From Myxococcota bacterium (GTDB taxonomy: Bacteria > Myxococcota_A > UBA9160 > UBA4427): DNA of 64,000 bases. This document shows, piece by piece, positions 19,901 through 48,338 of this stretch. The stretch lies in NCBI GenBank assembly GCA_965250285.1, contig OZ252299.1:576001-640000 (forward strand), read 5' to 3'. Positions within the stretch are counted from its first letter, which is position 1. Every line of letters starts with the position of its first letter. A model generated the notes under the pieces. The model was not told where the DNA came from and ran no database searches. It saw only the letters and a program-made list of their open reading frames with translations. The position numbers and the translations under genes are program-made.

Positions 19901-20490
19901 CGGGCGAGCGCGGGTTCGCCGGTGGTCTCCACGTCGCTGGGATGATGCTGCTGGGCGCGCGGCCCTACGATCCGGCCATCGGTCGCTTCCTCGCGCCCGA
20001 TCCCGTCGACCACGTTCTGAACGACTTTGCGTACACCCGCGGCAACCCGGTTCATCTCTGGGATCCGGGTGGGACCCACGCGACGCCCGTCGGTGGCGCG
20101 CCCTCGCAGACGCCGGCCGGACAGGCCACGGTGACCGTCGGGGTCGGCTTCATGGCGATGGGGGCTTCGATGGCCGGCAACGCCGTGGCCGCCGGACCGC
20201 TCGCTGGGCAGTTCACCGCCACGGGCGTGATCATCTTCGTCGGGGGCGTGGTCTTGGTGTACGTCGGCACGGCCATGCTCGACTCGCCGGATCCGCCGAC
20301 CATGGCGCCCCCCGTGCCCCCACCGGCCGAATCGACCGATGCCCTGCCCGACGGTGACCTCGGCAGCGGATCGACGTGTTCTCCGGATGCGTTCCGACCG
20401 CGCACATCCGGGACGCCGCGGGCGGTGATCTGGCTGCTGCTCCTCGCAGCGGTCGTCGGCCTCATGCGCCGCGCCGAGGTGAGCGGCTAG
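16912..20490 (+). CDS. RHS/YD-repeat protein with N-terminal signal peptide and C-terminal CTERM-like membrane tail
   Basis: Many YD/FD/WD-xxG repeats; core RPYDPAIGRFLAPDP...YTRGNPVHLWDPGG; GGAGGG RBS; tail GSGSTCS...WLLLLAAVVGLMRR. Confidence 0.9.
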   Translation: MPRRSSFGRAVLGVWVVGVCLIAGIGCQGSSPEPRPGLVESERNAVERIGDVRVHLAHGNVSSDRVDLVLDTRVAPLVVGAVFNSATGHWAWRHDMRLAGGVFFDDSGAELDVGAVVDGAAIPGTHWVRVDETRIKTKGGLVHRFDPITGRLVEVHWSDGSYPALRYVADPSVPGRLDRIEQCVSAASCSVQLTIEYDAAGCVLAVVDRAGRTADYLHERLGATCRPLVARDPFDVERDLPGRRYAYGVAGRLRAIVNSEDERIELDWSGDNIARVRRVGHGDPEVRFGFVVDVGGRRTVAVKTTASGAVWVYEFDAEQRLSRMRSPEGDVVTQTWSGRRPTSRTDASGRVWRYDWVDDDLVRVEQPSGAAEVRVYAPGAVDRRHPERRPVLLVTDDLGTRQVRSFDASGRMISSRNGAGDTTHFEWDALGQLARATLPDGVVIEYHDYGEHGHAARVVRGEVEEVRLFDAVGNLEKGASVQGELGPGRPGLVRRRFDADRNVAEVVTVETALDDLTIAYRSTTITRRSDGRALHIARPYGGDEWFEYDAHGRLIERRERVDGVDRVTSIEFDIDARPKRSVLPNGMKTEVDWDRDGRLVRIEHTRPGTIWQWVTLTYAQGRVVEIGDSAYATPESIAHDVDGRVQRIDHASGGRSELEYDARGREVARRIIDPTTGGVAFEARRSYDGADRLVSTWIDGELLIERERVDGRPSAVRYGNGLTRTFAYHPATGELIESRTQDAAGVSVERTDLVRDAGYERLDVTVTSRILLAGPPGGAPIWHRALEVHRLRWGPTAYDGFPTPGPWLRMSSQNDILETPVADRVRFDALGNLDAFQPRGGPATEFTMNAERNRLLAGGFDATRTYATDEAGFVVSRDGVALGWTAGGRLASIGASVSLAWDARNRLRSRTIDGVTTRFGYGGRVEVDAVGRPIAAEIDGVGVALGSGARRYRHHDDRGNVLFVSDEQAAVVRRHVYAGFGERAVFDRDGTERAPGSGERGFAGGLHVAGMMLLGARPYDPAIGRFLAPDPVDHVLNDFAYTRGNPVHLWDPGGTHATPVGGAPSQTPAGQATVTVGVGFMAMGASMAGNAVAAGPLAGQFTATGVIIFVGGVVLVYVGTAMLDSPDPPTMAPPVPPPAESTDALPDGDLGSGSTCSPDAFRPRTSGTPRAVIWLLLLAAVVGLMRRAEVSG

Positions 20491-26391: not shown

Positions 26392-26700
26392 CGGGCAGGC
26401 TCTCCGGGCGGATGGAACGGGCGGTGCGGAGGCGGCGGCCGGAGCAGGCGGAGCCAGGCTCGGACCGGCGGGCCAGAACGAGATCTCGGGGCTGGTTGGT
26501 CGACGCGGCCCATAGGTACCAAAGCCGAGGCGATCCCGCGCGGTGGCGCGACGCCTGGCGTTCGATTTTTGTGCGGGATCGCGGGCGGTTGGACGGGTTC
26601 CGAATCGATCGGCCCGGCCGTGTCGGTCGGCGCGGGGCGGCGGCCGACGTGAAGCGATGCGGTGGGGCTGCTACACCCCCGGGACATCATGGAGGGTGCC

Positions 26701-28071
26701 ATGGACCGGTCCCGGTCAGACGAGGTTCTTCTTTCTTCTATTGCTCGTCGCGGCTGCGCGGTCTGCGCGATCGCGGCGGCGCTCGCGCTCGCGGTGGGCT
26801 GCGGCGGTGAGGCCGAGAAGCCCGCGGCGAAGCCGGCCGCCGAGAAGGGCGCCGAGGCGGCGGGGCAGCCCGCGACGCCCGCCCCCTCCGACAAGCCGGT
26901 GGTCGAGACGCCCGACGATCTCCCGTACGCCCTCGTGCTGGGGCTGGCTCAGTTCGAGGCCCGCAAGCCGGGCTCGAAGTCGATGCCCGAGCCCCTGCCC
27001 GCGACGATGGAGTTCCTCGTGCGCAAGAACGGCGAGTGGGTGCACTCGAGCATCGCCGACCCCGACAGCAACGTGATCCACAAGGCGATGGCCTATCCCG
27101 TGGACGGCGAGGATCGACTGCTCGCGGCCGCCGGCTCGAAGGCGACGCTGCGCCTCTGGAACGGCGGCGAGGTCGACACCACGATCTGGGAGAAGGACTT
27201 CGGCGGCAAGTTCTCGCGCATGCGCGACATCGAGATCGCCGACCTGTACGGCGACGGGCAGATGGCGATCGCGATCGCGACGCATGACCAGGGTGTCGTC
27301 GCCACCGCACGCCCCGACGGATCGGGCGGCTTCATCATCGAAGAGCTCGACCAGGAGCCCGACACGTTCGTTCACGAGATCGAGATCGGTGACCTCGATG
27401 GCGATGGTGTGCTCGAGATCTACTCGACGCCGAGCGAGCCGAATCGCCTCGACGGCAGCGAGCAGTCGGGGGTCGTCAAGCGCTACGTGCCGGCCCAGGG
27501 CACGCCGGGCGAGGTGGCCGCCGATCTCGGTGACCGCCACGCGAAGGAGATCCTCGTCGACGACGTCGATGGTGACGGAGTCGACGAGCTCTACGTGCTC
27601 GTCGAGGGCAAGATCGACAAGGACACCAAGAAGCTGAAGGAGGGCGTTCAGATCCTCCGCTTCGAGGGCGACACCCCGGCCGATGGGGGCGTCGTGATCG
27701 CCACCATCGACGACCGCCTCGGTCGGTTCCTGACCGCAGGCGACTTCACCGGCGACGGCAAGAAAGAGATCGTCGCGGCGCTCTTCAGCCAGGGGCTCTG
27801 GATGCTGAGCCCGGGCGATGACCCGAACGCGCCGTGGACGAAGACGCTGATCGACCGCCGCTCGGGTGGCTTCGAGCACGCCGCGATCCTCGCCGACCTC
27901 GACGGGGACGGCGTCGACGAGCTCTACGTCGCGAGCGACAACGACAACGAGGTGCGGCGCTACGTCTGGGTCGACGGCAAGCCGGTGCGCGAGGTGATCT
28001 ACAAGCGCACGAGCGGCAACAGCGTCTTCACCTGGAACATCATGCCCATCCCGGTCGAGCTCGTGCCCTGA
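26701..28071 (+). CDS. FG-GAP/VCBS-like repeat lipoprotein (beta-propeller)
   Basis: Lipobox-like LAVGC; repeated DxDGDG motifs (DLYGDG, DLDGDG, DVDGDG, DFTGDG, DLDGDG). Confidence 0.8.
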   Translation: MDRSRSDEVLLSSIARRGCAVCAIAAALALAVGCGGEAEKPAAKPAAEKGAEAAGQPATPAPSDKPVVETPDDLPYALVLGLAQFEARKPGSKSMPEPLPATMEFLVRKNGEWVHSSIADPDSNVIHKAMAYPVDGEDRLLAAAGSKATLRLWNGGEVDTTIWEKDFGGKFSRMRDIEIADLYGDGQMAIAIATHDQGVVATARPDGSGGFIIEELDQEPDTFVHEIEIGDLDGDGVLEIYSTPSEPNRLDGSEQSGVVKRYVPAQGTPGEVAADLGDRHAKEILVDDVDGDGVDELYVLVEGKIDKDTKKLKEGVQILRFEGDTPADGGVVIATIDDRLGRFLTAGDFTGDGKKEIVAALFSQGLWMLSPGDDPNAPWTKTLIDRRSGGFEHAAILADLDGDGVDELYVASDNDNEVRRYVWVDGKPVREVIYKRTSGNSVFTWNIMPIPVELVP

Positions 28072-28093
28072 CCCGCGTGCGCGCGTCGGCGTG

Positions 28094-28885
28094 CTAGAGC
28101 GCGTCCATGGCGGCGTTCGCCACCTCGATGCAGCGGGCCATGTTGCGATCGAGGTCGATCGCCGACGGGCCCGGCCAGGGCGTGCGGTCGGATACGACGC
28201 AGATGCAGCCTGCGCGCAGGCCGAAGATCGAGGCCAGCGTGAGCAGCACGCCCGACTCCATCTCGCAGTTCAGCACGCCCGCTGCACGCATGTCGCGAAT
28301 GCGGGTCTCGAGGTGGCTCGGCCAGTAGCTGCCCACGCTCATCGAGGCCATGCCGCCGCCTTCGGTCGCGATGGCATTGCGCGCATAGAACGCGTCGAGT
28401 GACCACGTGGTGCCGACGTGATGCGTCGCCTCGGCCGCGACGGCGGCGTCTTCGAGTGCGGCGACCACGCGGTGGTGGGCCGCCGCGGGAAACTCGGGCA
28501 CCACGTACGTGCGGGACGTCCCGTCGTCGCGCACGGCACCGCGGGTGATTACGAGCTCGCCGAGCTGAAGCTCCGGGGCCAGGCCCCCACTGTTGCCGAT
28601 GCGGATCAGCGTGTGGCTGCCGAGCTTGGCGAGCTCTTCGACGAGGATCGCCGTGCTGGGCGCGCCGATGCCGGTCGAGGCGGCGCTCACGGGGCGGCCG
28701 CCGCGCTCTCCGGTCACGATGCGGTACTCGCGGGCTTCGCAGACGACGCGGGTCGAGCTCCAGCTCGCGGTGATGCGGTCGACCCGGGCCGGATCGCCGC
28801 AGAGAAAGACGTGCTCGGCGACGTCGCCGGGGCGGCAGCCGGTGATCGGCTGGGCTTCACCCGCGGCGTCGGAAGCATCGGACAT
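28094..28885 (-). CDS. Nucleoside phosphorylase (uridine phosphorylase-like)
   Basis: CGDPARV, REY, STGIGAPS, EELAKLG, IRIG, RDDGTS, NCEMES. Confidence 0.88.
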   Translation of the reverse strand: MSDASDAAGEAQPITGCRPGDVAEHVFLCGDPARVDRITASWSSTRVVCEAREYRIVTGERGGRPVSAASTGIGAPSTAILVEELAKLGSHTLIRIGNSGGLAPELQLGELVITRGAVRDDGTSRTYVVPEFPAAAHHRVVAALEDAAVAAEATHHVGTTWSLDAFYARNAIATEGGGMASMSVGSYWPSHLETRIRDMRAAGVLNCEMESGVLLTLASIFGLRAGCICVVSDRTPWPGPSAIDLDRNMARCIEVANAAMDAL

Positions 28886-29160
28886 GGTTTCGATTCTCCG
28901 TTTCTCACCCGGTGAGTGGGTGGGCTCGTATCCGGCGGGGGGGGTGGGCGCGTCGCCGCGGCCGGGGCGGCGTGAGCCTCCCATCTCGGACGCTCGACGG
29001 CAATCCCCCCAACCTCAAACCAGCGTTCGAAAACGGCGGGGGGCGCGGTGCCGTTCGGCCGCGGCTCGAGGCGTGCGGGCGGGTGCTCGGGCGGGTTGGA
29101 ACAAGCGTTCAGCGGCCCGCAAGCGATGCCGCAAATCTCGGATTCACGGGCAGAATTCGA

Positions 29161-29190
29161 TTGTTTTCCCGAGGAACCGCGTTGTATCGT
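29161..29190 (+). promoter_or_regulatory. Putative sigma70 promoter ahead of a long leader of the giant barrel gene
   Basis: TTGTTT-N18-TATCGT in an AT-rich patch. Confidence 0.35.
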
Positions 29191-29864
29191 GGATCGGATC
29201 CAACTCGTGGGGGGGAATCCTCCTCATCCGTCACGCGTCGCGTGGGCCTCGACTTCGGCGGACCGCAATCCAGGTGCGGTCCGACAAATAGTAAGAAGAA
29301 GAAGAGGCCGCGGGCCGTCTGCGGTGTACAGGTTATGGATCGGGCGTCGTGCTCGGGCGTTTCATCCCGATGCGGTGGGCCACGAAGACTTCCAGCGAAG
29401 TTCTTCGTCTGGAGAGGCCGACCGATGCGGGTGACACAACCCGAGTGAACCGCGCGCGAAGACTCCGTCGTCTTCGCAGGCGTACGACGCACGAACCGAG
29501 CCGGTCTCGCAGCCCGACACGCCCTCGTGACGCGGTGCTCGCCGGCCCCCGGCCGCCGAACGCCGACCGGATCGACGACGACGGTCGTCGATTGCGCGGG
29601 GATGCGGAGCTCGACCCACTGCGAGCTGGATCGTGGGGGAAAGCGCGCCTCGGCGAGTCGATTGCGGGCCGGCGAAACTCGAGCGTCGGCCTGACTCGTT
29701 GGACCCGATCCCGGCTGGGGGTCGCGTTCGCATCCGGCATGCCATCGGATGGACGTGATCTGCTGTTCGGTTCTCGGGGCCTTGGATGTCGGGCTCTCCC
29801 CTCCGGTTCCAACCGGGCGGCCACCGCGAGGTTGCGGTGATTCGGTCGGGCTGTTGGAGGGGTC

Positions 29865-32800
29865 ATGATCCAGTTCTTCTGTCGTTCGTTCGCCGGTGCG
29901 CACCCCCAGCGAACACGATGGGCCACCCGGGTTCTCGCGGTGTTGCTCCTGGCGTTCGGAGCGAGCTCAGGCGGTCTCCTGACCGCCCCGGGCGCGCAGG
30001 CGCTCGAAGCGCTCGATGGGCGTGTTCAGGCACACGGCTTCGTCGAGATGCAGCTGCGCACCATCAGCAAGAACTACACGGGCAACTGGGATCTCGTGCA
30101 GTGGTACAACATCTTCAACCTCGAGCTCGAGGTGGATCTGCTCCAGGACACGATCGGCCCCCTCGACCTCGTCTCGGGCTACGTGCGCGTCGAGGCGCGC
30201 TTCGACTGCATCTACAGCCGCGGCTGCGGCATGGTCAAGCCGGTCAACACTTTCGGCAATCGCGCACGCAGCCTCCCGACTCGGTTGATGGACGGCGACA
30301 CGTTCACGACCGCCGGCCAGATCACGCTCACCGACGACGGCCCGATCGCGCGCCCCGATCGAAACCCGCTCGCGTTCCAGGAGGTGCCGGGCTTCGAGGG
30401 TCTCTACGGCGAGGAGCCCGAAGATCAGATCGGCCCCGGCGCGCTGCTGCGCCCCGAGCTCATGCAGTGCACGACCTCCGACTGCAGCCCGGCCAACGCC
30501 GTATGGCGCCCGTGGAATGCCCCGACGCGATTCTGGAAGGCCGATCGCAACCAGAAGTGGGCGTCGACCAGCGGGCAACCGTGGGAGACGATCGACGACG
30601 GCACCCAGGGCTCGCCGTTTCTCGTCAACAACTACGCCTTCGAGGATTTTCGCTTCGCGACGATCCCGGTGATCGGCGGCGCACAGACCGGTCACGCCCA
30701 GCAGATCTTCGGCCCCTGGCTGCCCGAGAACTTCGTCGAGCCGAACGCCGCGATGGCCGACATCGCGAACCCCCTCGACCAGTCACGCGTGTCGCCCGCC
30801 AGTCTCTCGTTCGGCGCCGGCGGCTCGCCGTATCGCCCGATTCCGATCTACCGCGAGGACAACCCCGAGCGCAGCCAGATCTACATTCGCGATCTGCGGC
30901 CGTTCACCGACCCGAACCCCGAGCGCGACGCGAACGGCGACCCGCTCGACGACAAGTTCAACGACTACGACGACACCTTCGGCTGGCAGGTGGTCAACCC
31001 GAATGCGCTCGATCGGCGCACGTTCAACGATCGTGCGGCGGCCGCGAACGAGGCGCGAGGCATCTTCGTGCCGTCGGCGCCGCTGCGGGCCGCCCTCGCC
31101 GAGGGCAACCTCGACACCTACAACTTCAACTTCACCCAACAGCAGCGCGCCTTCAATCGCGGCGCCGCGCAGCAGGACGAAGGCGAGCTCAAAGAGGCCT
31201 ACCTCGACATCGAGATGTTCGACAGCCGACTGTGGATGCGCGTCGGCAAGCAGACCATCGTCTGGGGCAAGACCGAGCTCTTCCGCACGACCGATCAGTT
31301 CAACCCGCAGGATCTCGCGCTCGCCAATCTGCCGAGCCTCGAAGAGTCGCGCATCGCGCTCTGGGCGTGGCGCGGCGTGTGGTCGTTCTACGAAGTCGGC
31401 CCGCTCTCCGACGTGCGCGCCGAGCTGGCGTTCAACTTCGACGAGTTCGAATCGGCCGATCTCGGCGCCTGCGGCGAGCCCTTCACGATCAACATCGTCT
31501 GCCAGCTGACCTTCGGCGCCATGGCGCACGGCTTCACCGGCATCGGCGTGGTCGGTCAGGAGCAGCCGCCGAACCCGTGGGACAGCCTCAAGGGCTGGGA
31601 GATCGGCGGCCGCCTCGAGTTTCGCTGGGACCGGTTCAGCTTCGCGATCACCGACTTCTACGGCTACGACGACTTTCCGCACGTGCGCCGCCTGTCGACC
31701 TACAACCGCAACGTCGACTGGCGCACCGGTCGCCCCCGCGTCTACATGCACAGCGAGCAGGATCTGCAGCTGTCGTTCGACGGCACGGTCGGTCGCGGCT
31801 GCGCGACGCCGACCGATCCCGGCATTCCGACGACGGGCGGCGTGATCGACAACAGCGCGAGCGCGACCCCCGGCTATGTCGAATACGACGGGGCCGAGAA
31901 CGCGGGCTGCCTGACGCCCGGTTCGTCGAATCGCATGGTCGACTCGGCCGGCAAGCCCTACCAGGTGCCCTTCGGCACGCCCGACTCGCGCGACAATCCG
32001 TGGGGCAAGTACTCCACGCAGTTCTGGAACGACACGTCGCGCGCAGACGCCAACGACCCCCGCCCCGACTGCTTCGAGGGGACGGGCGGCTCGAACAACG
32101 TGTCGCCCGACTGCCTCGCGCTGGCCGACTACGATCCCCGGTACGACCCGAACAACACGCTCGCCAACAACTACGGCACGTCGCAAGGTCGACTCGATGC
32201 CCGCTTCATCAGCGACCTCAACCCGGCCTGGTTGAACTCGTACGACCCGACCCTGCGGTACGACCCGCGCAACGCACTCGAGCAGTCGCCGACCAACCTG
32301 TCGGTGTTCAACTGGGTCTGCGCTTCGACCGTGGGCTTCAGCGAGCTCGACCCCTCGGCCTGCGCCACGACGGTCTTCAGCTCGCAGCGCTACTCGCGGG
32401 GCGTGCAGAACCCGGTGTCGTATCTGCTCGCCGGCGTGATCAGCGGCTCGCAGAACATCAACGTGGCGCTCTCGGGGGCCAGCGCGAACGAGTCGCTCTC
32501 GTACTTCACCAGCATCCCGCAGCTCATGGGCATCCCCTTCATGCGGCTGCACGTCGACACCATCGCCGAGGTCGACGACGAGGCGACACCCAACCTGAAC
32601 GAGGCGCTCTTCACCTACGATCGCCGCGCCCAGTGGGCGGTCGAGACGGGTGTGGCCGGCGCGGCCGCCGACCTCGACCAGATGCTGATCCGCGCGCGTG
32701 AGGGCGAGAGCTACAACTGCCTGTCGCGCGGCTTCACCCAGGCTTCGGCGCTCACCGGTCAGGCGGTGCTCTGCGGCGGCTATGCCTGGCGCGGCACGGG

Positions 32801-35588
32801 CGTCGACACGCGCTCGCAGGTCGTCGGCCACATCTCGCGCGGGTTCGCGCCCGAGCAGGAGGCGCTGCTCGGCTGCGGGCCCTACTTCGGGACGAGCTGT
32901 GACGCGAACGGCGTCGACCTGCTCTGGGCCGAGGGCAGCGCGCTGCTGCAGTCGGCGATCGGTAACGACTCGATTGGCATCGCCTTCAGCGATCTGGGCA
33001 TCCAGGATCTCGTGCCCGAGATCTACGGCGACCGGCTGATGGACAACGGCAGCATCCCGCTCGAGTACCGCACCGACGGCCGCGTGATCGGTGTCGATGG
33101 TCAGCTGATCCGCATCAACGAGACGACGGGGCTGCCCGAGCTCGGCACCGCCGAGGGCGCGGCGACGGGCTTCGTCGGTCGAAACGGCCAGGCGATCGGT
33201 CATGACGGCAACGACTGCAATCTGACGTACGAGCCGTTCAATGTCGATCCGACCACGCAGGAGCAGCGCCTGCGGACGGCCGCCGCCAACCGCTTCAACT
33301 CGCGCTGCTGGGATCGCCGCGAGTACTTCGTGGTGAACGGCATCCAGCCGGGCACGTCGGCCTTCGAGATCCAGGGGCTCGGCGGGCCGAAGTGCACGAC
33401 CGCCGACATCGGCGGGCCGCAGGGCGCCTCGGGCATCCTGCCCGGCTGCCGCAACAAGTGGGCAACGATCCGCTACAACCGCGTGCTGCAGCCGGGCGAG
33501 GGCGAGTACCACCCGAACAACCCGCTCGCCGAGTACGTCGGCAACAACTATCTCGGTACGGTGGGCGACCCGACCGGGCAGCGCACCGACTACCAGCAGA
33601 TCGACCTCGCGGCCCAGTTTGGCTGGTGCCCGGCAAGCGACCCCGACTGCAACGTAAACGCCCCCGACGGCCGGCTGGTGACGCTGACGGGTGGCCAGGT
33701 CGATCCCACGGGTCGCGCGACCACGGGTTCGGGTCTCAACTGGGGCGTGTACTCGCCCGGCCAGGTGCCCGGCTGCGACGTCGCGGGCTCCGAGGACGAT
33801 CCCCGCTGCTACCTCGCCGGCTGGGTGCAGACCACCGACGGCGACCCCGACCGACTGGGCGTGCTCTTCCCCGACGAGGGCGCGATCGACTTTCCGCAGG
33901 TCTTCCAGGCGACCGGCGGCTTCGACTTCGGCACCGGGCCCGAGGATCTCGGCACCTGGGTCACGAACATCGTGCAGCGCGACTACGTGAACATTCGCGC
34001 CGGCACGCCCTTCGGCGCCGATCCGTCGGGCTGCACCGAGATGCAGGCCTGGGTCTGGATGCAGCGCGTCGCCGACGAGCACGGCGGCGGCTACATCAAC
34101 CACGCCGAATGTACGTCGGTCAAGACGGGCATCGGGGCGGGCCATCCCTTCACCGGTGAGAGCTGGTCGAGCGAGGTCGCGGGCCTCTCCTTCAACTTCA
34201 TGATGCTGCTGGTCGCCTTCTCGCCCGAGTTCGCCGACGGCATCGCGAGCGTGCGCGGCTTCGTCGACCCCGCGACGTACGACGCGAAGCTCTACTCGGA
34301 CCAGCCGCTGACGTCGGACGACGCGAACTTCGATCGGCGCGACAGCGTGGCCGAGTCGGGCATCGACGATCAGCTGTTGCCGTGCCCGGTGACGGAGACG
34401 AACTGCAGCCGCCTGCAGCGCGACCCCGATCTGCCGAACGTGCTCGACGTCTTTCCCGATCTGAAGTGGTACGAGCAGCAGTCGCCCTGGGCCTTCCGCG
34501 AGAACGCGGCCCGGCGCCTTCGCCTCGGCACGTCGGCGGGGCAGAACATCGACGCGATCGGCGCGGGCGCCGCCGAGATCGCGCGCGGCTCGGACGGCAA
34601 GATCTTCAGCCAGGGCGAGAACGGCGGGCGACACCGCTGGCGCGGCCTGATCCACACCATGCTCTGGGACTACGCCTTCACGGGCAGCGAAAACCAGCTC
34701 ATGGCGTTGATCCCGAAGTGCACCGACGAGCGGGCCACCCAGGCGCGCATGATCCAGGGCAGCGTCAAGTTCGTGAACCCGTCGCGCATCGACTGCCGCG
34801 AGGGCTCGGCAGGTGAGACGCTCGGCAGCGAGCGCTGCACCTTCGTCACGCCGCAGCACTGCTCGCTGGTGCAGGCGCTGTACAGCGTGGCCGGTCAGAA
34901 GCGCAACATCATGCGCGCGGGCGGCAACGGCACCTTCGGTCGCCGGACGATGCAGTGGCAGTCGGGCAGCGAGGTCTACCTGAGCTATGAGAAGCGCAAC
35001 GTGCTCGGCTTCTCGATGGACTTCGCGGAGGACTTCACGAAATCGAATTGGTCGACCGAGTTCACGTTCATCAAGGGCATCCCGACGGCCGACGCGAACT
35101 CGTACGAGCTGAACACCCGCACCGATACCTACAACCTGACGGTCTCGGTGGATCGACCGACCTTCGTCAACTTCCTGAACTCGAACCGCACGATCTTCAT
35201 CAACTCGCAGTGGTTCTTCCAGTACCGCAGCAACTACAACAGCGGCATGGGCCCGAACGGGCCGTGGAACACGCTGGCGACGCTGTCGGCCTTCACGGGC
35301 TACTTCCAGGATCGCCTCAACCCGGCCATCACCGGCGTGTACGACTTCCGGTCGCGCTCGGGCGCGGCGCTGCCGTCGATCAACTACCGCTTCAGCGAGG
35401 CGTTCTCGATCACGGTCGGCGCGTCGATCTTCTTCGGTCGACAGCAGCTGCAGCCGATGCAGGTGAACCCGATCGGGCCTGCGATCGAGCGCGGCGGCGT
35501 GACCCCGTATCAGGACGGCTTCTTCGGCGGTCTGTCGCTGATCAAGGATCGCGACGAGGTCTACATGACGCTGCGGTACACGTTCTGA
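29865..35588 (+). CDS. Giant DUF1302-like outer-membrane beta-barrel protein with large Cys-rich insertions (1907 aa)
   Basis: GGAGG RBS; signal peptide ending AQA; ELKEAYLD...RVGKQTIVWG...DQFNPQD; amphipathic strands; C-terminal beta-signal YMTLRYTF. Confidence 0.8.
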   Translation: MIQFFCRSFAGAHPQRTRWATRVLAVLLLAFGASSGGLLTAPGAQALEALDGRVQAHGFVEMQLRTISKNYTGNWDLVQWYNIFNLELEVDLLQDTIGPLDLVSGYVRVEARFDCIYSRGCGMVKPVNTFGNRARSLPTRLMDGDTFTTAGQITLTDDGPIARPDRNPLAFQEVPGFEGLYGEEPEDQIGPGALLRPELMQCTTSDCSPANAVWRPWNAPTRFWKADRNQKWASTSGQPWETIDDGTQGSPFLVNNYAFEDFRFATIPVIGGAQTGHAQQIFGPWLPENFVEPNAAMADIANPLDQSRVSPASLSFGAGGSPYRPIPIYREDNPERSQIYIRDLRPFTDPNPERDANGDPLDDKFNDYDDTFGWQVVNPNALDRRTFNDRAAAANEARGIFVPSAPLRAALAEGNLDTYNFNFTQQQRAFNRGAAQQDEGELKEAYLDIEMFDSRLWMRVGKQTIVWGKTELFRTTDQFNPQDLALANLPSLEESRIALWAWRGVWSFYEVGPLSDVRAELAFNFDEFESADLGACGEPFTINIVCQLTFGAMAHGFTGIGVVGQEQPPNPWDSLKGWEIGGRLEFRWDRFSFAITDFYGYDDFPHVRRLSTYNRNVDWRTGRPRVYMHSEQDLQLSFDGTVGRGCATPTDPGIPTTGGVIDNSASATPGYVEYDGAENAGCLTPGSSNRMVDSAGKPYQVPFGTPDSRDNPWGKYSTQFWNDTSRADANDPRPDCFEGTGGSNNVSPDCLALADYDPRYDPNNTLANNYGTSQGRLDARFISDLNPAWLNSYDPTLRYDPRNALEQSPTNLSVFNWVCASTVGFSELDPSACATTVFSSQRYSRGVQNPVSYLLAGVISGSQNINVALSGASANESLSYFTSIPQLMGIPFMRLHVDTIAEVDDEATPNLNEALFTYDRRAQWAVETGVAGAAADLDQMLIRAREGESYNCLSRGFTQASALTGQAVLCGGYAWRGTGVDTRSQVVGHISRGFAPEQEALLGCGPYFGTSCDANGVDLLWAEGSALLQSAIGNDSIGIAFSDLGIQDLVPEIYGDRLMDNGSIPLEYRTDGRVIGVDGQLIRINETTGLPELGTAEGAATGFVGRNGQAIGHDGNDCNLTYEPFNVDPTTQEQRLRTAAANRFNSRCWDRREYFVVNGIQPGTSAFEIQGLGGPKCTTADIGGPQGASGILPGCRNKWATIRYNRVLQPGEGEYHPNNPLAEYVGNNYLGTVGDPTGQRTDYQQIDLAAQFGWCPASDPDCNVNAPDGRLVTLTGGQVDPTGRATTGSGLNWGVYSPGQVPGCDVAGSEDDPRCYLAGWVQTTDGDPDRLGVLFPDEGAIDFPQVFQATGGFDFGTGPEDLGTWVTNIVQRDYVNIRAGTPFGADPSGCTEMQAWVWMQRVADEHGGGYINHAECTSVKTGIGAGHPFTGESWSSEVAGLSFNFMMLLVAFSPEFADGIASVRGFVDPATYDAKLYSDQPLTSDDANFDRRDSVAESGIDDQLLPCPVTETNCSRLQRDPDLPNVLDVFPDLKWYEQQSPWAFRENAARRLRLGTSAGQNIDAIGAGAAEIARGSDGKIFSQGENGGRHRWRGLIHTMLWDYAFTGSENQLMALIPKCTDERATQARMIQGSVKFVNPSRIDCREGSAGETLGSERCTFVTPQHCSLVQALYSVAGQKRNIMRAGGNGTFGRRTMQWQSGSEVYLSYEKRNVLGFSMDFAEDFTKSNWSTEFTFIKGIPTADANSYELNTRTDTYNLTVSVDRPTFVNFLNSNRTIFINSQWFFQYRSNYNSGMGPNGPWNTLATLSAFTGYFQDRLNPAITGVYDFRSRSGAALPSINYRFSEAFSITVGASIFFGRQQLQPMQVNPIGPAIERGGVTPYQDGFFGGLSLIKDRDEVYMTLRYTF

Positions 35589-35611
35589 CGCCACCCCGAT
35601 CCGGATCGGCC

Positions 35612-35652
35612 CGCCCGCCCTCGCTGCCCGGCAGCGGGGGCGGGCGTCGTTT
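35612..35652 (+). terminator. Intrinsic terminator-like hairpin after the barrel gene
   Basis: CGCCCGCCCTCGCTGC-CCG-GCAGCGGGGGCGGGCG followed by TCGTTT. Confidence 0.65.
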
Positions 35653-36030
35653 GCGGTGCCGCGAGAGGCGCGCGGAGGTCGTCTCGAGGGATGCTCTGCA
35701 GAACTCGCTCCACGCATGTTGGAACAGCTCTGGGCGGCGACCTCGATGACGCGATGCGACCCAAACCGATGCCACCAGAAGCGAGTGCTGCGCACCAACC
35801 GAAGCGTCCCGAGGCCGGGGCAGGCGGGGGTACCGCGCGCAGTTCGCAGGCGCGCTGGGTGCAGCATGCGAGTTTCCCTGATGGGTCGCGCCGAGAATGT
35901 CTGAGCACGGTGCCCCCGCCTGCCCCGGCCCTGGCACGGCAGACCGGGCAGAGGTTCCCTATCGGGACCGGGGGACGCGCGCGCGGGGTCGTCTCTTTGC
36001 GGGGCCGGGTGACGCGCGCGGCGGTCGTCG

Positions 36031-37518
36031 TCAGCGGCCGCGCAGCAGCGAGTCGGACGACATCAGCTGCCGCCGATCGTCGTCGCTCCAGGGCAGGCTG
36101 CGCACGTCGAAGCTCTCGCGGATCCATCCCCCCTCGCCATCGAGGGCGTTGAAGAACGCGGCGGCCACCGGCTCGAGCACGTGGGCCTGGCTGCCGCCCG
36201 GCCACTCGGGGTACTGGGGGATGTCATCGCTGTAGCGGTGGGCGAAGACACCGATCTCGACGAGGCGGCGTCGGTCGGTGCGTGAGATCCAGTAGAGCGG
36301 GTGCTGGGTCTGTTCGTCGAGATAGATCGTGATCGTGCGGATCGTCTCGTTCTTGCGCTTGAGCGCGCCCTCGATCACGACCGCCGAGCGTACGTCCCAG
36401 CGGTCGCTCGCGAGAGAGAGCCCCGAGTAGCCGTAGAGCCGCTCTTCCTCGATCGGATAGCCCGACTGATTGCTGTTGATCGGCGCGATGACGACGGTGC
36501 GGCCGCGCACGCGCCAGACGAACGCGTTGGGGCGAAGCTCGAGCCCCGTGAAGCCGATGCGCGCGTCCTCGGTCTCGCCGATGTTGATGCCGGCGCCGGG
36601 GTTCACCGCGCCGGTGCCCACCGCGATGCCCCCGCCTCCGGACTGGCCCGACCACGTGAACCTCGGCGTATAGAAGCCGTCGACCCAGTTCGTTGCGGCC
36701 CGGCGCACCTTCCGCATCGACGGCACGTAGACGAAGATGTCGTCGGGCTCTTCCCAGCGCCGCGCGCTCTTCTCGACGCGGTACTGGCGCCAGGCGAGGC
36801 CGCGGGCGGCGAAGGGGTGGCTGAACGATCCCGCGCCCACCCAGAGCCGATCCTTCGCCTCGGGTACGGCATAGCCCTGCTCCCACAGATCGGCGCGCTC
36901 CTTCAGCTTGAGCAGGCTGAACTCGCCGCGATAGGTCTGGGTGCGGCCGAGGCCGCTCGCGTGGCTGCGAATGCGCATGCGACCGCGATGGCCCGCCCCG
37001 CGGTAGCGCTTCTCGAAGTTCCAGGCCCAGCGCAGGCCCGCGGTGCTGTCGTCGTCGGCGAACGTGTCGGGGGGGAAGGGCTGGCCCGCCGTGTAGTTCT
37101 CGAGGTTGCCGTGCTTGTCGAGCTTCGGCTGCCCCTTGAACTGCTCGGTCGCCGAGCGGTAGGCCTTCGGGATGATGAAGCGGCGGTGGCACGGGCCGAT
37201 CTCCATCTGCATGCCTTCGAAGAAGAAGACCTCGCGGAACTTCCACAGCTCGGAGGGAAGCAGGGTGCGCAGCGCGAGCAGTGAATCCTTGTCGATCGTC
37301 ATGCCGGGCTCGATGACGACCGGGGCGGCGTCCTCTTGCGTCTGCCCGTCTTCGCTCGTCGCCTGAAGCGTGGGGCAGTCGCCCTCGTCGGGCGTCGCCG
37401 ACGCGGCCTGCGCCGCGAGCAGGGCCCACGCTGCGGCGAGGGCGGCACGCCAGAACGAAGAGCGGCGCGCGCATCGCCGGCGCGGCTGCGCAGCGAGTTG
37501 GGGGCGGGTCGTCGGCAC
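36031..37518 (-). CDS. DUF1329-like periplasmic protein
   Basis: GGAGGAG RBS with GTG 37518; signal peptide; ATE..GQ..LD..G.L.NY.AG.PFP, WAWN, DD.FVYVPSMRKVRR. Confidence 0.8.
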   Translation of the reverse strand: MPTTRPQLAAQPRRRCARRSSFWRAALAAAWALLAAQAASATPDEGDCPTLQATSEDGQTQEDAAPVVIEPGMTIDKDSLLALRTLLPSELWKFREVFFFEGMQMEIGPCHRRFIIPKAYRSATEQFKGQPKLDKHGNLENYTAGQPFPPDTFADDDSTAGLRWAWNFEKRYRGAGHRGRMRIRSHASGLGRTQTYRGEFSLLKLKERADLWEQGYAVPEAKDRLWVGAGSFSHPFAARGLAWRQYRVEKSARRWEEPDDIFVYVPSMRKVRRAATNWVDGFYTPRFTWSGQSGGGGIAVGTGAVNPGAGINIGETEDARIGFTGLELRPNAFVWRVRGRTVVIAPINSNQSGYPIEEERLYGYSGLSLASDRWDVRSAVVIEGALKRKNETIRTITIYLDEQTQHPLYWISRTDRRRLVEIGVFAHRYSDDIPQYPEWPGGSQAHVLEPVAAAFFNALDGEGGWIRESFDVRSLPWSDDDRRQLMSSDSLLRGR

Positions 37519-37731
37519 GGGCTCCTCCCGGGGTGCTTCGGCGCGCCTCGGCGCTCGGCGGACGAGCGAGTCTACCGGTCGCGGCGCGCCCGCGCGTGGG
37601 TGGCGGGGCAACCCTGCGGGCGTGACGCGAGGGCGGACGGGGGACGGGTCGAGGTTGCCCGCATGACGCGAGGGCGTGCCGGGTGGGTCGGGCTACCCTG
37701 CCGGGGCCTTCGAAGCGCCGGAGCCCAATCC

Positions 37732-38703
37732 ATGGCCAGAAGATCGATCGGTGTCCCGGTCACCGTCGGCACGGTCCTCATCGTGCTGGTGCTCGCGCTC
37801 GCCGTCGGCTGGCAGGTGCTCGTATGGACTGATTCCGGGCCCGACCCGGCCGCGCTGCCCCGCCTCGACTGGCTGCTGCTGGTGCTCGGCACGACGTTCT
37901 TCGCAGTGGTCATGATCGGTCTCGTCTGGCTCTGCACCTGGCTGGTCGCCGAGGTTCGCCTCAATCAGCGCCAGCGCGCGTTTCTCGACGCCGTGACCCA
38001 CGAGATGAAGACCCCGCTCGCGTCGGTTCGGCTCGGCCTCGAGACCCTCGATCGGCACAACCTCGACGAAGCGCGTCGGCACGACTTTCTGCGCAGCATG
38101 GGCGAAGACCTCGATCGCCTCGACGAGACGATCGCGCTCGTCCTGGCCGCAGCGCGGGCCGAGGAGCGAGGCCGGGGCGACTGGCGCCGACGCCCGGCCA
38201 TCGAGCTGGGGGACGTGATCGACGACTCGGTGCACGAGCTCGTCGAGCGCCACGGGCTACCGGCCTCGGCCGTCACGGTCGATCCGATCGCCCCGGTTCG
38301 CGTGCTCGGCGATCGCAGCGAGCTCTCGCTGATCTTCCGCAATCTGCTCGAGAATGCGTTCAAGTACTCGCGGGGTGAGCCGGCGATCCACGTGAGCGTG
38401 CAGCAGCCCTCCGAGGGCCGCGTTGCGATCGCGATCGGCGACGAGGGCATCGGGATCCCGCGCCACGAGCTGCGCAAGATCTTCAACCGCTTCTATCGTG
38501 CGGGGCGCGACGTGCAGAGGCAGGTGGCGGGGCTCGGCCTCGGGCTCTTCGTCGTGCGTGCCATGGTGCGCAAGCAGGGGGGGCGTGTGGTCGCCGAGAG
38601 CGAAGGAGCGGGCCAGGGCAGCCGCTTCGTCGTGACGTTGCGCACAGCAGCTCGCAGCGAGCGCAGCGCCAGCAGCATGCACCCGGCGCCCCACGCCGGC
38701 TGA
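37732..38703 (+). CDS. Sensor histidine kinase
   Basis: Two TMs; THEMKTPL, NLLENAFKYS, DEGIGI, FNRFYR, GLGLGL. Confidence 0.95.
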   Translation: MARRSIGVPVTVGTVLIVLVLALAVGWQVLVWTDSGPDPAALPRLDWLLLVLGTTFFAVVMIGLVWLCTWLVAEVRLNQRQRAFLDAVTHEMKTPLASVRLGLETLDRHNLDEARRHDFLRSMGEDLDRLDETIALVLAAARAEERGRGDWRRRPAIELGDVIDDSVHELVERHGLPASAVTVDPIAPVRVLGDRSELSLIFRNLLENAFKYSRGEPAIHVSVQQPSEGRVAIAIGDEGIGIPRHELRKIFNRFYRAGRDVQRQVAGLGLGLFVVRAMVRKQGGRVVAESEGAGQGSRFVVTLRTAARSERSASSMHPAPHAG

Positions 38704-38735
38704 GGGCTTCGAGGCCCGCGAGGAAGACGTCGCAC

Positions 38736-39437
38736 GTGTCCCACATCCTGATCGTCGAAGACGAGGCCCACATCGCCGAGGGTCTCCGCTTCAATCTCGA
38801 GGCCGAGGGCTACGCGGTCGACGTCGTCGGCGATGGCCGGGCCGCGACCGAGGAGCTGGCGCGCGAGGATTGCGACGTCGATCTGGTGATCCTCGACCTG
38901 ATGCTGCCCGAGATGAACGGCTTCGAGGTGGCGCGGCGGATGCGGGCCGCGGGCAACTACGCGTCGATCCTCATGTTGACGGCGCTCGATGGCTCGGCCG
39001 ACGTGGTGCGGGGGCTCGAAGAGGGCGCCGACGACTATCTGACGAAGCCGTTTCGTCTCGAAGAGCTGCTCGCGCGCGTACGGGGGCTGCTGCGTCGTCG
39101 TCGCTGGGACGGCGTCGACGACGCGCCCGACAAGCCGCGGGTGGTCGAGTTCGGCGAGGCGAAGCTGCACCTCGATCGTTTCGAGCTCGAGACGCAGGGC
39201 GAGACGATTCGCCTCACGACGCGCGAGATGGGGCTGCTCCGCGCGTTGATCGAGCGTGAGGGTGAGGTCGTGACGCGGGGCGAACTGCTCGAAGAGGTCT
39301 GGGGTTTGCGCCCCGATACGCGAACCCGCGTCATCGACAGCTTCATCGTGCGGCTGCGTCGTTACATCGAGACCGACCCGGCACGGCCGCGACACATCGT
39401 GTCGGTTCGTGGCCACGGCTACCGCTTTCAGAGATAG
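38736..39437 (+). CDS. OmpR-family response regulator
   Basis: VEDE, LDLMLP, GADDYLTKPF, winged helix RVIDSFIVRLR...VRGHGY. Confidence 0.96.
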   Translation: MSHILIVEDEAHIAEGLRFNLEAEGYAVDVVGDGRAATEELAREDCDVDLVILDLMLPEMNGFEVARRMRAAGNYASILMLTALDGSADVVRGLEEGADDYLTKPFRLEELLARVRGLLRRRRWDGVDDAPDKPRVVEFGEAKLHLDRFELETQGETIRLTTREMGLLRALIEREGEVVTRGELLEEVWGLRPDTRTRVIDSFIVRLRRYIETDPARPRHIVSVRGHGYRFQR

Positions 39438-44370: not shown

Positions 44371-45114
44371 ATGAACATGCATCGCCAGGATGGTCGAGTC
44401 AGGTGTTGGAAGGCCGCGAGTGGTCTTCTGGTTCCCGCGCTCTTCGCCGTTCTCTTCTTGTGCCTGGGGTCGACTGCGGCCCAGGCCAGAGACGGTGAGG
44501 TGCTCGTGGCCGACAGTGTTTGTCGAGCGCACGAGCTGCGCTTCATGCAGGAAAACGATCCCGAGCTGCAAATCGAGATCCCGGCCGAGTTCGCGGGACC
44601 GTGGCCCTCGCGCAGCGCTTGCGAGAGCGCGGTCCTGGCCTGGGATCCCGAGGCGCCTGGGCCGAAGCAGCCGATCCCGTTCAGTCACAAGCACCACGCG
44701 GGTGAGTTCGGCATGGACTGCCTCTACTGCCATACCGGCACCGACCGCTCGCAGGCCGCGGGCGTTCCGTCCGTCGAGCTCTGCATGGGTTGCCACGCGC
44801 AGTTCCCCGCGACGTACGACGAGATCGAGGGCATCCGCATCTTGAAGGCGGCCTGGGAGACGAAGCAGCCGATCCTGTGGAATCAGATCCACCGGCTGCC
44901 CGAGCACGTGCAGTTCCGGCACAACCGCCACATCAAGGCGGGGCTCGACTGCCAGGAGTGCCACGGCCCCGTCGAAGAGATGGACAAGGTCTACCTGGTC
45001 CCCGACACGCAGTGGAAGTACTTCGTGCCCGCCCAGAAGATGGAGATGGGCTGGTGCATCGACTGTCACGAGGAGAAGGGCGCTTCGAAAGACTGTCTGA
45101 AGTGCCACTACTGA
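44371..45114 (+). CDS. actA: Alternative complex III pentaheme cytochrome c subunit
   Basis: QPIPFSHKHH; five CxxCH (CLYCH, CMGCH, CQECH, CIDCH, CLKCH); MGWC; first gene of the act cluster. Confidence 0.9.
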   Translation: MNMHRQDGRVRCWKAASGLLVPALFAVLFLCLGSTAAQARDGEVLVADSVCRAHELRFMQENDPELQIEIPAEFAGPWPSRSACESAVLAWDPEAPGPKQPIPFSHKHHAGEFGMDCLYCHTGTDRSQAAGVPSVELCMGCHAQFPATYDEIEGIRILKAAWETKQPILWNQIHRLPEHVQFRHNRHIKAGLDCQECHGPVEEMDKVYLVPDTQWKYFVPAQKMEMGWCIDCHEEKGASKDCLKCHY

Positions 45115-45305
45115 GACAGCGCGAAGAGTAAGAAGACGCTCATCATCGAACGGCCCTGAAGCCTCAATCGAGCCGAGCTGCACGAAGCGCGTGGCGAGAG
45201 AGAGAAAGAAAGAGAACAGGGCGAGGACATCGACCCCAGGTCACCGAGCCGGCTGCGAGCGGCCGCCGGTCCCCGGAAACCCGGGACGAAACCCAGGACA
45301 ACGAC

Positions 45306-48300: not shown

Positions 48301-48338
48301 AGGTCACGCGCGAAGATCAGGAGGGGCACCACTCATGA
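45306..48338 (+). CDS. actB: Alternative complex III subunit B (Tat-exported molybdopterin-enzyme-like + Fe-S domains)
   Basis: RRDFLK Tat motif; GRPIKLEGNPDHP; QEVPDPVTKISW; CxxCxxCxxxC clusters; CVGTRYCANNC; GVMEKCSFC. Confidence 0.93.
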   Translation: MPELDRRDFLKIVGLGAGAAAASGCSDPIEKLVPYVIQPESVTPGIATIYASTCQECSLGCGLHVRTREGRPIKLEGNPDHPINQGALCSRGQMGLSRAYHPDRYDSPKKQGGSGLEATGWDEAMASLGGQIGEGTVVLGGPVGPSLSGVIDAFVTGVGGQRIVYEAFSTDALRTATEKVFGVATLPIFDLTDTDLVVDFGYDVIDTGKSSVEHSRQLADARDVEKHKDGGARLVSISPRMNLTTGNADEWIPAKPGSEGLIALALAQAVAQKKGADGALQAALDGANASDAASKAGIDQAQLDALADRLASAKNAIALPPGVAVTSSVAVSANAAVLLLNAAIGAVGNAVTLPAPTGAATATYAELEQLVDAMNSGAVKTLLIHDSNPVYSLPTSLGFAEALDKVDTVVSFASMKDETSEAATLVLPDHAPMEAWGDAEPRPGVRSIVQPTLRPLMDTRALGDTLLELGRAKGATMPEGSFHEVVKANWAETDWVTALSNGGLFGEVQTVPAEVQSVAGIDPGAPSFEGDGDFMLVAFPHSFQTDGSGASLPWAQEVPDPVTKISWNSWVEMSQTKAEEIGVTFGDVVRVRTPGGDLELSVYPRGGIRDDVIAIPTGQGHTVGFYSSMATEVDQVDVEPGTARGVNVLSVLPGAAGEDGTRVYLGTKAAIEKTGRFRRLALSQWTDNQRGRDLAPTLSLMELAEDTHKVAHFAAQSAEDGDDHGAGHGDDVPHGGDDHHLLPFDPAYDAKPGQPYRWGMVIDNDRCDGCSACITACYIENNVSIVGETQAIKHREMTWLRIERYIGDGDREGGESRRPYPTLERLGDTDVRHLAMPCQHCGAAPCEAVCPVIGTYHTDEGLNGMVYNRCVGTRYCANNCVYKVRRFNYWDYGNKNWPGMLGMMLNPDVTVRQQGVMEKCSFCVQRIEQARQPAKDAGRPIRDGEVVTACQQTCPSGAITFGNWREEDAQINKLVNDNPRNYNVLHVLNARPAVSYLAQVTREDQEGHHS

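Follow-up and report, generated by a model that had tools for sequence, protein, structure and literature searches.

In a window of 64,000 nucleotides from a Myxococcota bacterium (contig OZ252299.1, the whole stretch analysed here), we found a giant gene of the DUF1302 outer-membrane family, whose product is predicted to form one 18-stranded barrel with a likely disulfide-stapled cap built from loops L2 and L5 (Table 1). We give an even chance to the reading that this barrel serves an AmeABCD-like lipid-shuttling system as its outer gate. Tentatively, and with some doubt, we further propose that a new disulfide-stapled domain of ~300 aa caps a lipid-shuttling channel, has repeatedly given rise to free proteins of PEP-CTERM or adhesin-like type, and has expanded by accretion into internal barrel loops of up to ~1,560 aa with 20 disulfides.

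Table 1. Features of the giant barrel gene and its convergent neighbour, in window coordinates
Feature	Position	Strand	Remarks
Giant DUF1302-family outer-membrane barrel gene	29865..35588	+	1,907 aa, C-terminal ...RYTF
Putative signal peptide, aa 1-46	29865..30002	+	By inspection: basic N-region, hydrophobic stretch, AQA, then conserved mature start
Predicted barrel strands 1-3, aa 54-114	30024..30206	+	P0123 model mapped by alignment
Insert 1, loop L2, aa 115-441	30207..31187	+	327 aa, 4 Cys; family range 151-528 aa (conserved-block definition)
Predicted strands 4-9, aa 442-601	31188..31667	+	Most conserved part; contains Pfam DUF1302 match and L4 pair C536/C546
Insert 2, loop L5, aa 602-1709	31668..34991	+	1,108 aa, 26 Cys; conserved core with added lineage-specific extensions that carry paired Cys
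Cap-core block D, aa 801-841	32265..32387	+	C819/C833; 166/170 full-length members
Cap-core block E, aa 996-1030	32850..32954	+	QEALLGCG motif, C1004/C1012; 169/170
Cap-core block F, aa 1160-1199	33342..33461	+	LPGxR, C1177/C1195; 85/170 by HMM, LPGxR near-invariant
Cap-core block G, aa 1426-1456	34140..34232	+	E-x-x-A-x-S-x-N helix; 156/170
Block H, aa 1657-1699	34833..34961	+	C1658/C1666 pair, then Arg/Gly motif
Predicted strands 10-18, aa 1710-1907	34992..35585	+	Terminal Phe; P0123 model mapped
DUF1329 gene of the LolA-like family; product a likely partner in the periplasm	36031..37611	-	Convergent; Pfam E 7e-24; true start probably downstream of 37611

The open reading frame is free of internal stops and about three times the usual DUF1302 length, in line with the remark in an earlier note on this DNA that such proteins are usually far shorter (AmeA has 605 aa). 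Its GC3 is 0.83-0.97 throughout, so the codon bias of the insert equals that of the barrel parts and shows no sign of a foreign origin. In the alignment of relatives, the cleavage-site consensus is AxA-FE, and the C-terminal Phe is invariant among the barrel proteins (alignment A4). We found neither a sigma-70-like promoter for the gene nor a paralogue of it in the source genome. Checking the domain boundaries, as had been proposed, placed the Pfam DUF1302 match (PF06980) at aa 387-529 only (E 1.9e-11; 44.1 bits against a gathering score of 23.2). Giants of the sister order gave no match to this model at E 0.01, yet the family HMMs match them at 1e-60. The family is restricted to one Myxococcota class and varies continuously in length from 936 to 2,372 aa; the barrel portion is near-constant (463-476 aa), and the L5 insert spans 284-1,559 aa. 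Family counts were taken over 170 full-length members. In the literature searched, in which subscription journals were little covered, we found no description of enlarged or myxobacterial DUF1302 members or of large barrel-loop insertions.

We know of no solved structure for DUF1302. The folded model is that of a homologue, P0123 (1,030 aa; 119-row alignment), mapped by alignment onto the 1,907-aa protein. This model (pLDDT 88.8, pTM 0.91) is one 18-stranded barrel with the inserts within the long loops L2 and L5, and its aa 25-1030 matched OpdQ in a fold search (Z 22.1, rmsd 3.5, 309 aa). Other whole 18-strand barrels matched as well, namely OccD2 (Z 22.1), OccAB4 (21.7), MOMP (20.9), AlgE (18.8) and Wzi (18.0), and Foldseek returned partial porin matches only. 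Published predictions for DUF1302 also give an 18-stranded barrel, one preprint stating both 18 and 16. On the 1,907-aa protein, the 18 predicted strands are distributed over aa 54-1906, and strand 1 begins 8 residues past the putative signal peptide. The odd-strand loops measure 7, 327, 30, 54, 1108, 7, 11, 4 and 39 aa, and the even-strand turns 6, 4, 2, 2, 7, 8, 6 and 4 aa. The N- and C-terminal parts are thus predicted to make one outer-membrane barrel, as the earlier note had supposed, and the segments it saw split by insertions of ~300 and ~1100 aa correspond to those flanking L2 and L5. The limits it set for the large insert also hold, with YGYDDFP at aa 599-605, EVYLSY from aa 1703 (nt 34971) and 1,097 aa between them. 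Because both inserts sit in long loops opposite short turns, they would be extracellular by standard porin topology, which agrees with the surface exposure suggested earlier.

The mapped topology also bears on whether the gene is an assembly or fusion artefact or the insert periplasmic. A single contig of run X1 (possibly the source sample itself) covers positions 28000-35824 with zero differences, and the whole layout recurs in 24 independent homologues, 1,885-2,372 aa long; together these rule out an assembly fusion. With hundreds of independent homologues and nothing found in its favour, we regard this explanation as having a negligible probability.

The protein contains 33 Cys, of which 32 are in the mature part and 26 within aa 611-1700, exactly as a hand count had estimated; CxxCH and CxxC are both absent, and a multiheme cytochrome c was rejected on this ground. 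The closely spaced pairing that had been noticed is borne out. The 32 mature Cys form 16 consecutive pairs with spacings of 5-36 aa, and the summed within-pair spacing of the insert's 26 Cys was matched by 65 of 100,000 random placements. All 32 sit in loops on the odd, long-loop side of the mapped topology. Of the 170 full-length family members, 168 have an even number of Cys, as do 129 of 130 L5 inserts in a non-redundant set, and the median spacing is 14 aa within pairs versus 58 aa between them (26 and 27 aa when shuffled). Among the 24 aligned giants, Cys columns are gained and lost as adjacent pairs (P0287 lacks both Cys of one pair), and 13 of the 16 pairs of the 1,907-aa protein are invariant. 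The source genome encodes DsbB and two DsbA-like proteins; it gave no VKOR match, DsbB being there instead. Judging from these patterns, consecutive Cys are likely disulfide-bonded and staple the cap.

By sequence comparison, the L5 insert is a conserved core of ~300 aa repeatedly overgrown by Cys-paired extensions and not a recruited foreign passenger, because the core is already present in the smallest members and was enlarged piecemeal. When aa 1035-1424, from the part specific to the giants, were searched with HMMER in full against 1.84 billion representatives, six matches came back, five family members and one short chimera, and no outside donor. A tandem-repeat origin was rejected: no tandem domain duplication was found in the insert, whose best in-frame DNA repeats are 25-38 nt long (for example, a YDP-x-N motif present three times). 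The insert had been called rich in D/G/N/P; relative to a rough genome background, this stands for Asn (5.5 vs 2.3%) and Gly (11.7 vs 9.4%) and fails for Asp (7.5 vs 6.8%) and Pro (6.0 vs 5.3%), which are barely above it, while Cys (2.4 vs 1.0%) and Gln (4.9 vs 2.9%) are also enriched. Folded alone from a 28-row alignment, the insert gave a pLDDT of 37.6, and a fold search with that unreliable model reached a best Z of 3.0. The cap-core profile had no match among PDB sequences at E<=1, and the ESM Atlas returned no usable match for the window's insert or the minimal core; such blanks indicate neither novelty nor absence. Likewise, a word-index search with the insert returned no shorter proteins, but it also missed known fragments.

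Polar residues of the core (Q, D, E, S, N, R) stay invariant, also in its barrel-less forms. These residues, and the esterase role proposed for P. putida DUF1302/DUF1329, would suit a surface enzyme, for example an esterase that cleaves fatty esters and feeds the pore. However, no His is conserved at >=80% within the core, the L2 and L5 inserts have no Pfam or NCBIfam match, and canonical members give an ester phenotype without such a cap. We consider this enzyme very improbable.

Cap cores without a barrel occur in 12 proteins from 6 genomes. PEP-CTERM scored above cut-off in 3 of the 9 scanned, other such cores are fused to NIDO, thrombospondin-3, dockerin or CARDB, and two are most similar to the barrel-bound copy of their own genome. 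A 13th candidate, L049, proved to be a gap-truncated ordinary member, and the source genome has no barrel-less core. The Arg/Gly motif of block H (aa 1676-1701) is kept only where a barrel is attached; among 11 barrel-less cores, 0-1 have one. On this comparative evidence, the cap core stands as a surface domain of its own, and its repeated escape into PEP-CTERM proteins shows that it can be useful in the absence of a channel, which adhesion would explain as well.

Such fusions favour the view that the barrel is an anchor, that the cap is a polymorphic adhesin or a kin- or prey-recognition receptor (TraA/TraB-like or self-displayed), and that transport is vestigial. The inserts point the same way. 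Within 90% clusters, 5.95% of L5 sites vary versus 1.23% of barrel sites, and the inserts also harbour almost every indel; cap expansion occurred repeatedly on the tree. The variability that the earlier note had looked for in paralogues was therefore found among relatives, in length and in sequence. However, strands 4-9 of the barrel show high conservation (94% identity in the same-genus orthologue; dN/dS 0.04-0.19), and insert dN/dS is 0.14-0.52, with no region-wide value above 1 among the three to five pairs compared. Moreover, the convergent DUF1329 gene is retained in 24 of 30 cases, and the barrel is co-lost with unlinked RND and propeller genes. We therefore judge this adhesin or receptor unlikely. 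Size itself could reflect near-neutral accretion, in which the core matters and the additional ~800 aa are decoration that selection tolerates; the continuous lengths, indels of 7-30 aa that segregate inside 90% clusters and certain 75-codon windows near dN = dS are consistent with this. The extensions are nevertheless under strict Cys pairing and overall purifying selection, with most pairs invariant in the giants, and we hold accretion to be quite unlikely. It is compatible with our preferred reading as regards the barrel and the core.

That preferred reading, the gate of a lipid-shuttling system, draws on the partner genes. The earlier note overlooked both the convergent DUF1329 gene and the dispersed propeller and RND genes. 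Top DUF1329 orthologues lie convergent to a family barrel within 1.5 kb in the 24 of 30 cases given above. In all three sister-order genomes examined, genes for a YCF48-like propeller, an MMPL/HAE3 RND and a giant barrel lie side by side in the same orientation, the barrel last, and no DUF1329 gene stands beside this cassette in the three stretches. In the source genome, the argG/ABC1...GGDEF-aspS site, the same as that of the sister-order cassette, carries a DUF1329 gene and the propeller, and the RND orthologue stands alone at C1:3307069; the partners are thus spread across three loci, and the one-operon arrangement of four AmeABCD-like genes is absent. Long DUF1329 proteins number three in the source genome. 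Across 41 genomes, the RND was present in 38, the propeller in 36, the cap core in 37 and DUF1329 in 38. In genus g14, the barrel, DUF1329 orthologue, RND and propeller are all missing in both genomes (G014, G023), and the cap core is found in 0 of 17. The exceptions to co-occurrence are G032, G035, G011 and G029. G035 is without the barrel and the DUF1329 orthologue, but its RND and propeller matches remain, each interrupted by a single stop; in G032, the barrel and DUF1329 are present, and the RND and propeller were not found. The g14 co-loss is a single evolutionary event, G035 and G032 break the pattern, and the convergent DUF1329 gene is transcribed separately from the barrel gene, all of which count against a common system. 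The barrel likely works as the AmeA-type member of an AmeABCD-like system with dispersed genes and no intact cassette. Because the DUF1329 neighbour and the scattered propeller and RND tie it to such a cassette, a pure adhesin, one of the roles first suggested, becomes a rival instead of the leading explanation.

Under the gate reading, the protein would be exported by Sec, and neighbouring Cys pairs would be oxidized in the periplasm by DsbA/DsbB, whose genes are present. BAM would then insert the barrel and thread the loops outward, with which short-range disulfides seem compatible, as closely spaced Cys pairs are reported, in the autotransporter literature, to be tolerated in passengers. 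At the mouth of the pore, the conserved helical cap core of ~300 aa may bind a ligand that is hydrophobic or amphiphilic. The LolA-like DUF1329 would dock on the short periplasmic turns and ferry the ligand to or from the propeller and the inner-membrane HAE3 RND; this step is a literature prediction for canonical members, for which a DUF1302-DUF1329 complex was predicted with an ipTM of 0.84. Finally, the fast-evolving, Cys-pinned extensions may vary the exposed surface and so tune ligand access or shield the essential core. Against this scheme, the fold model comes from a 1,030-aa homologue, and the insert's own model has the low pLDDT given above.

We lean slightly towards capture and uptake over export, because up to five strong, differently capped barrel copies in relatives' genomes share one RND and one propeller. 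Against this leaning, RND pumps are usually exporters, and HAE3/MMPL RNDs export lipids. AmeABCD of Castellaniella defragrans affects monoterpene tolerance and is itself read as an exporter (PMC6394551). In the literature, DUF1302 function is disputed among uptake, efflux, esterase activity and wall export, and canonical members are co-fit with the propeller and RND and required on Tween 20 and fatty esters. The system might instead export a lipid, glycolipid or polymer of the envelope, the cap serving as a surface acceptor or tether like Wzi and AlgE. The HAE3/MMPL class of the RND, its matches to HpnN and MmpL3 models (below cut-off), published proposals that cell-wall components are exported or monoterpenes expelled, the AlgE and Wzi fold matches and the fixed, housekeeping-like main locus speak for such export. 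However, no polysaccharide or lipid synthesis genes were seen by the main locus in the subset of ORFs scanned in 20 stretches, several differently capped barrels per RND fit one exported product poorly, and AlgE and Wzi score under the Occ importers. We assign this alternative a low probability.

If the more tentative cap-domain proposal is correct, BAM would have to export a loop anchored at its two ends and three times the size of the barrel, and paralogous caps would be interchangeable ligand receptors serving a single RND. The giant-cap design is widespread across the Myxococcota class, and the lineage offers a natural series in which the barrel stays constant while the cap grows across the L5 range given above. 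The design would be an extreme case for the size and disulfide load of an internal loop exportable by the outer-membrane assembly machinery, which bears on surface-display engineering. Additionally, L097, a soluble stand-alone core of ~280 aa (L097:3371-4402, signal and anchor included), would allow ligand-binding work without a membrane protein.

Among known systems, TonB-dependent receptors have a 22-strand barrel with an N-terminal plug; this class was rejected on the 18 strands and the start of strand 1 close behind the putative signal peptide. Type Va autotransporters combine a C-terminal 12-strand barrel with an N-terminal passenger. They resemble the giant barrel in a large surface domain, likely exported by BAM, and in closely spaced Cys pairs; here, as the earlier note had argued, the layout differs, since the 18 strands are spread along the chain, the surface domain lies within the chain as a loop held at its two ends and reaches 20 pairs in the family, and no autotransporter Pfam match was found. 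A variable Cys-rich surface domain joined to a barrel presumably recalls myxobacterial TraA/TraB, but the 1,907-aa protein has cap and barrel in one chain and no TraA/TraB match. PEP-CTERM/exosortase surface proteins of relatives contain the cap core, and the 1,907-aa protein has no sorting signal. OccK/OccD/OccAB, Campylobacter MOMP, AlgE and Wzi are 18-stranded monomeric channels that share the fold over ~300-330 residues (Z 18-22), but their chains (371-441 aa) are 7-10% identical, and none has a comparably sized cap. The canonical cassettes, AmeABCD, PP_0765/PP_0766 with PP_2018/PP_2019 of Pseudomonas putida, and Sama_1588-1591 of Shewanella amazonensis, are alike in the DUF1302 match, the predicted 18-strand barrel and linked DUF1329, YCF48-like propeller and HAE3 RND partners. 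In contrast, the giant barrel is ~3x longer, its 327- and 1,108-aa loops carry 30 paired Cys, its partners lie over three loci with DUF1329 convergent, and its relatives encode up to five differently capped paralogues.

The giant barrel gene, a DUF1302-family ORF with two large inserts and high, uniform GC3, encodes 1,907 aa (Table). The window protein is a DUF1302 member, with DUF1302 (aa 387-529) as its sole Pfam match. The gene is single-copy in the host genome, which elsewhere carries a DUF1302 of normal size (568 aa), and window positions 28000-35824 are reproduced exactly by one contig of X1, a sequencing run possibly from the source sample. Recounting upheld the earlier note's 32 Cys in the mature protein, 26 of them within aa 611-1700, its lack of CxxCH and its insert size (1,097 aa from YGYDDFP to EVYLSY). 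The closely spaced consecutive Cys pairs it described were also found (16 pairs, spacing 5-36 aa), and for the insert's 26 Cys equally tight pairing arose in 65 of 100,000 random placements. Its claim of an insert rich in D/G/N/P held for Asn and Gly, beside which Cys and Gln are enriched, but hardly for Asp and Pro. No description of enlarged DUF1302 members was found in the titles and text passages covered.

The model of P0123, a 1,030-aa homologue (pLDDT 88.8, pTM 0.91), has 18 long strands and mostly helical inserts. In VIA-align, its residues 25-1030 match complete 18-strand channels, best OpdQ (Z 22.1, rmsd 3.5, 309 aa), with further matches to OccD2 (Z 22.1), OccAB4 (21.7), MOMP (20.9), AlgE (18.8) and Wzi (18.0). 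Strands transferred from this model through the family alignment A4 predict one 18-strand barrel for the window protein. Its even strands are followed by connections of 2-8 aa and its odd strands by connections of 7, 327, 30, 54, 1108, 7, 11, 4 and 39 aa, which hold 32 of the 32 Cys. Since short turns and both termini of outer-membrane barrels are periplasmic, the inserts would be extracellular loops, L2 and L5. The window protein's own insert gave no usable fold.

Feature coordinates (window positions unless a fetched stretch, L, or aa is named)
Feature	Coordinates	Strand or basis
RHS-repeat protein	16912-20490	+
FG-GAP repeat protein	26662-28071	+
Gap 5' of giant gene	28985-29864	
Giant barrel gene	29865-35588	+
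Palindromic intergenic repeat	35780-35961	
Palindrome arms	35805-35842 and 35901-35938	
Histidine kinase and response regulator	37336-39437	+
Multiheme cytochrome/molybdopterin cluster	44371-52110	+
Strands 1-3, window protein	aa 54-114	homologue model and A4
Strands 4-9, window protein	aa 442-601	homologue model and A4
Strands 10-18, window protein	aa 1710-1906	homologue model and A4
Medium-sized DUF1302 members	L063:5362-7737, L058:7380-9869, L064:6097-8613	

Homologue searches returned 445 proteins of 1,048-3,338 aa (best 120 taken) and 128 shorter ones (best 120 taken); where named, the sources among the matches listed were mostly Myxococcota or Deltaproteobacteria. The 170 of these 240 that passed a full-length filter measure 936 to 2,372 aa, with a constant non-insert part (463-476 aa), an insert 1 of 151-528 aa and an insert 2 of 284-1,559 aa with 6-40 Cys, whose number climbs with length (rho 0.96). 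Of 28 further genomes in the class, 24 matched the conserved barrel block, as against 0 of 122 genomes of the phylum's other classes (E<=1e-10); the match in relative G035 is only a distant 830-aa DUF1302. A barrel-only FastTree (130 non-redundant members plus 5 locus proteins) placed ~1,000-aa forms on early branches and long forms in several separate clades, with mixed deep supports.

Insert 2 consists of a conserved core enlarged by accretion. Of the 170 members, 166 have block D, 169 block E, 156 block G and 170 block H, in constant order, with spacers of greatly differing length. Giant-specific aa 1035-1424 had six matches among 1.84 billion representatives, five of them from the family and one a short chimera. 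In P0337, a metagenome protein of 211 aa, ~50 aa from a giant insert are linked to the nuclease domain of a phage terminase, either because the assembly is chimeric or because a phage inserted. Medium-sized DUF1302 proteins (792-839 aa, 11-12 Cys) form a second group, possibly an intermediate stage; its L063 and L058 members lie in propeller-RND cassettes. Across ten 90% clusters, variable sites make up 5.95% of L5, 4.08% of L2 and only 1.23% of the barrel, and indels fall almost only within inserts. Pairwise dN/dS (barrel 0.04-0.19, inserts 0.14-0.52) indicates relaxed but purifying selection on the inserts; near-neutral growth of the extensions seems unlikely to us and is compatible with the other readings.

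The Cys pairs of the caps probably form disulfides. Of the 170 full-length members, 168 have an even number of Cys, as do 129 of the 130 non-redundant L5 inserts; median spacing is 14 aa within pairs versus 58 between them (26 and 27 after shuffling). Clade-specific Cys columns in 24 giants are adjacent pairs with the same presence patterns, both Cys of the block-D pair are gone in one near-identical allele, and the host encodes DsbB and two DsbA-like proteins. Autotransporter export is reported to tolerate only closely spaced Cys pairs (PMC3546941, PMC9769942), and the local pairing seen here agrees with this.

The cap core (the conserved ~300 aa) also occurs without a barrel. A 14-row core profile run against genomes yielded 13 candidates, of which 12, spread over 6 genomes, have no C-terminal barrel (among them L100, truncated at the N-terminus, and L101, with half of the core). 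At 344 aa the smallest, L097, consists of a signal peptide, the bare core and PEP-CTERM, a surface anchor whose cut-off was passed by 3 of the 9 barrel-less proteins scanned; others carry NIDO, thrombospondin-3, dockerin or CARDB domains. Invariant core residues are kept, and the Arg/Gly motif before strand 10 is missing. For two barrel-less cores of genome G028, the barrel-bound copy encoded in the same genome scores far higher than any of 273 others (322 vs 92 bits; 201 vs 106); these two caps, at least, left the barrel recently. Barrel-less cores support a domain that is autonomous, extracellular and engaged in binding, and ligand capture by the cap core is a plausible function; that the protein is instead an adhesin or recognition receptor we hold to be unlikely.

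Throughout the order the locus is found again as speA-hisS-FG-GAP protein-nucleoside phosphorylase-(topoisomerase)-barrel(s), converging on DUF1329-kinase-regulator-PAC2, and the tandem barrels number one to three. The FG-GAP gene, lipoprotein-like in its signal, lies upstream in most syntenic stretches, and where the window has its 880-bp gap, six relatives carry a gene for a type IA topoisomerase. The kinase-regulator pair, a conserved part of the locus that is transcribed away from DUF1329, possibly controls the system. The REP/MITE-like palindromic repeat between the barrel and DUF1329 genes has 31 genomic loci by blastn, about 28 of which cover the core of the repeat. The window also encodes an RHS-repeat protein of 1,192 aa that begins like a lipoprotein and whose C-terminal tail is hydrophobic and basic (stretch L036 has a similar gene near a family member) and, by Pfam, a multiheme cytochrome with a molybdopterin/4Fe-4S protein and membrane subunits, resembling alternative complex III.

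Partnership with DUF1329, the YCF48-like propeller and the MMPL/HAE3 RND is suggested by several observations. Of the 30 top DUF1329 orthologues, 24 lie convergent with a barrel gene of the family, and in 3 of 3 sister-order genomes propeller, RND and a giant of 1,770-1,790 aa are adjacent on one strand, running on to GGDEF-aspS in the two stretches of sufficient reach. The corresponding host site holds DUF1329 and propeller, and the host RND orthologue stands alone. Among 41 relatives, the cap core is present in 37, DUF1329 in 38, RND in 38 and propeller in 36. Genus g14, which belongs to the host's own family, is a natural knock-out for comparative genomics: its genomes G014 and G023 (93-96% complete) lack the barrel as well as the DUF1329, RND and propeller orthologues, and the cap core was found in 0 of 17 g14 genomes. 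Counting against co-loss, the g14 loss is one event, G035 still has matches for RND and propeller (both containing a stop) but no barrel, and G032 shows the reverse. Strong barrel copies number up to five per relative, versus one RND and one propeller orthologue.

Co-fitness of DUF1302, DUF1329, BNR and RND led to a proposal of wall-component export (10.1101/072470); export and tethering by the giant strikes us as improbable. Phenotypes on Tween 20 and butyl stearate accompany a proposed esterase role (10.1101/2020.07.04.188060), and a cap that is itself an enzyme is very improbable. Barrel-DUF1329 and DUF1329-propeller-RND complexes have been predicted (PMC10866462); one source gives 18 strands, an ipTM of 0.84 for DUF1302 with DUF1329 and no solved structure (PMC13499233), another 18 or 16 strands (10.64898/2026.03.07.710327), and two more have no direct bearing on the question (10.64898/2026.07.10.737566, 10.64898/2026.10.03.756453). 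We give about even odds to the reading that the giant is the capped gate through which a system shuttles lipids, with uptake slightly preferred. The window protein would work like AmeA (605 aa) of the four-gene AmeABCD system, which affects monoterpene tolerance (PMC6394551); unlike that canonical cassette, the giant gene's own is not intact.
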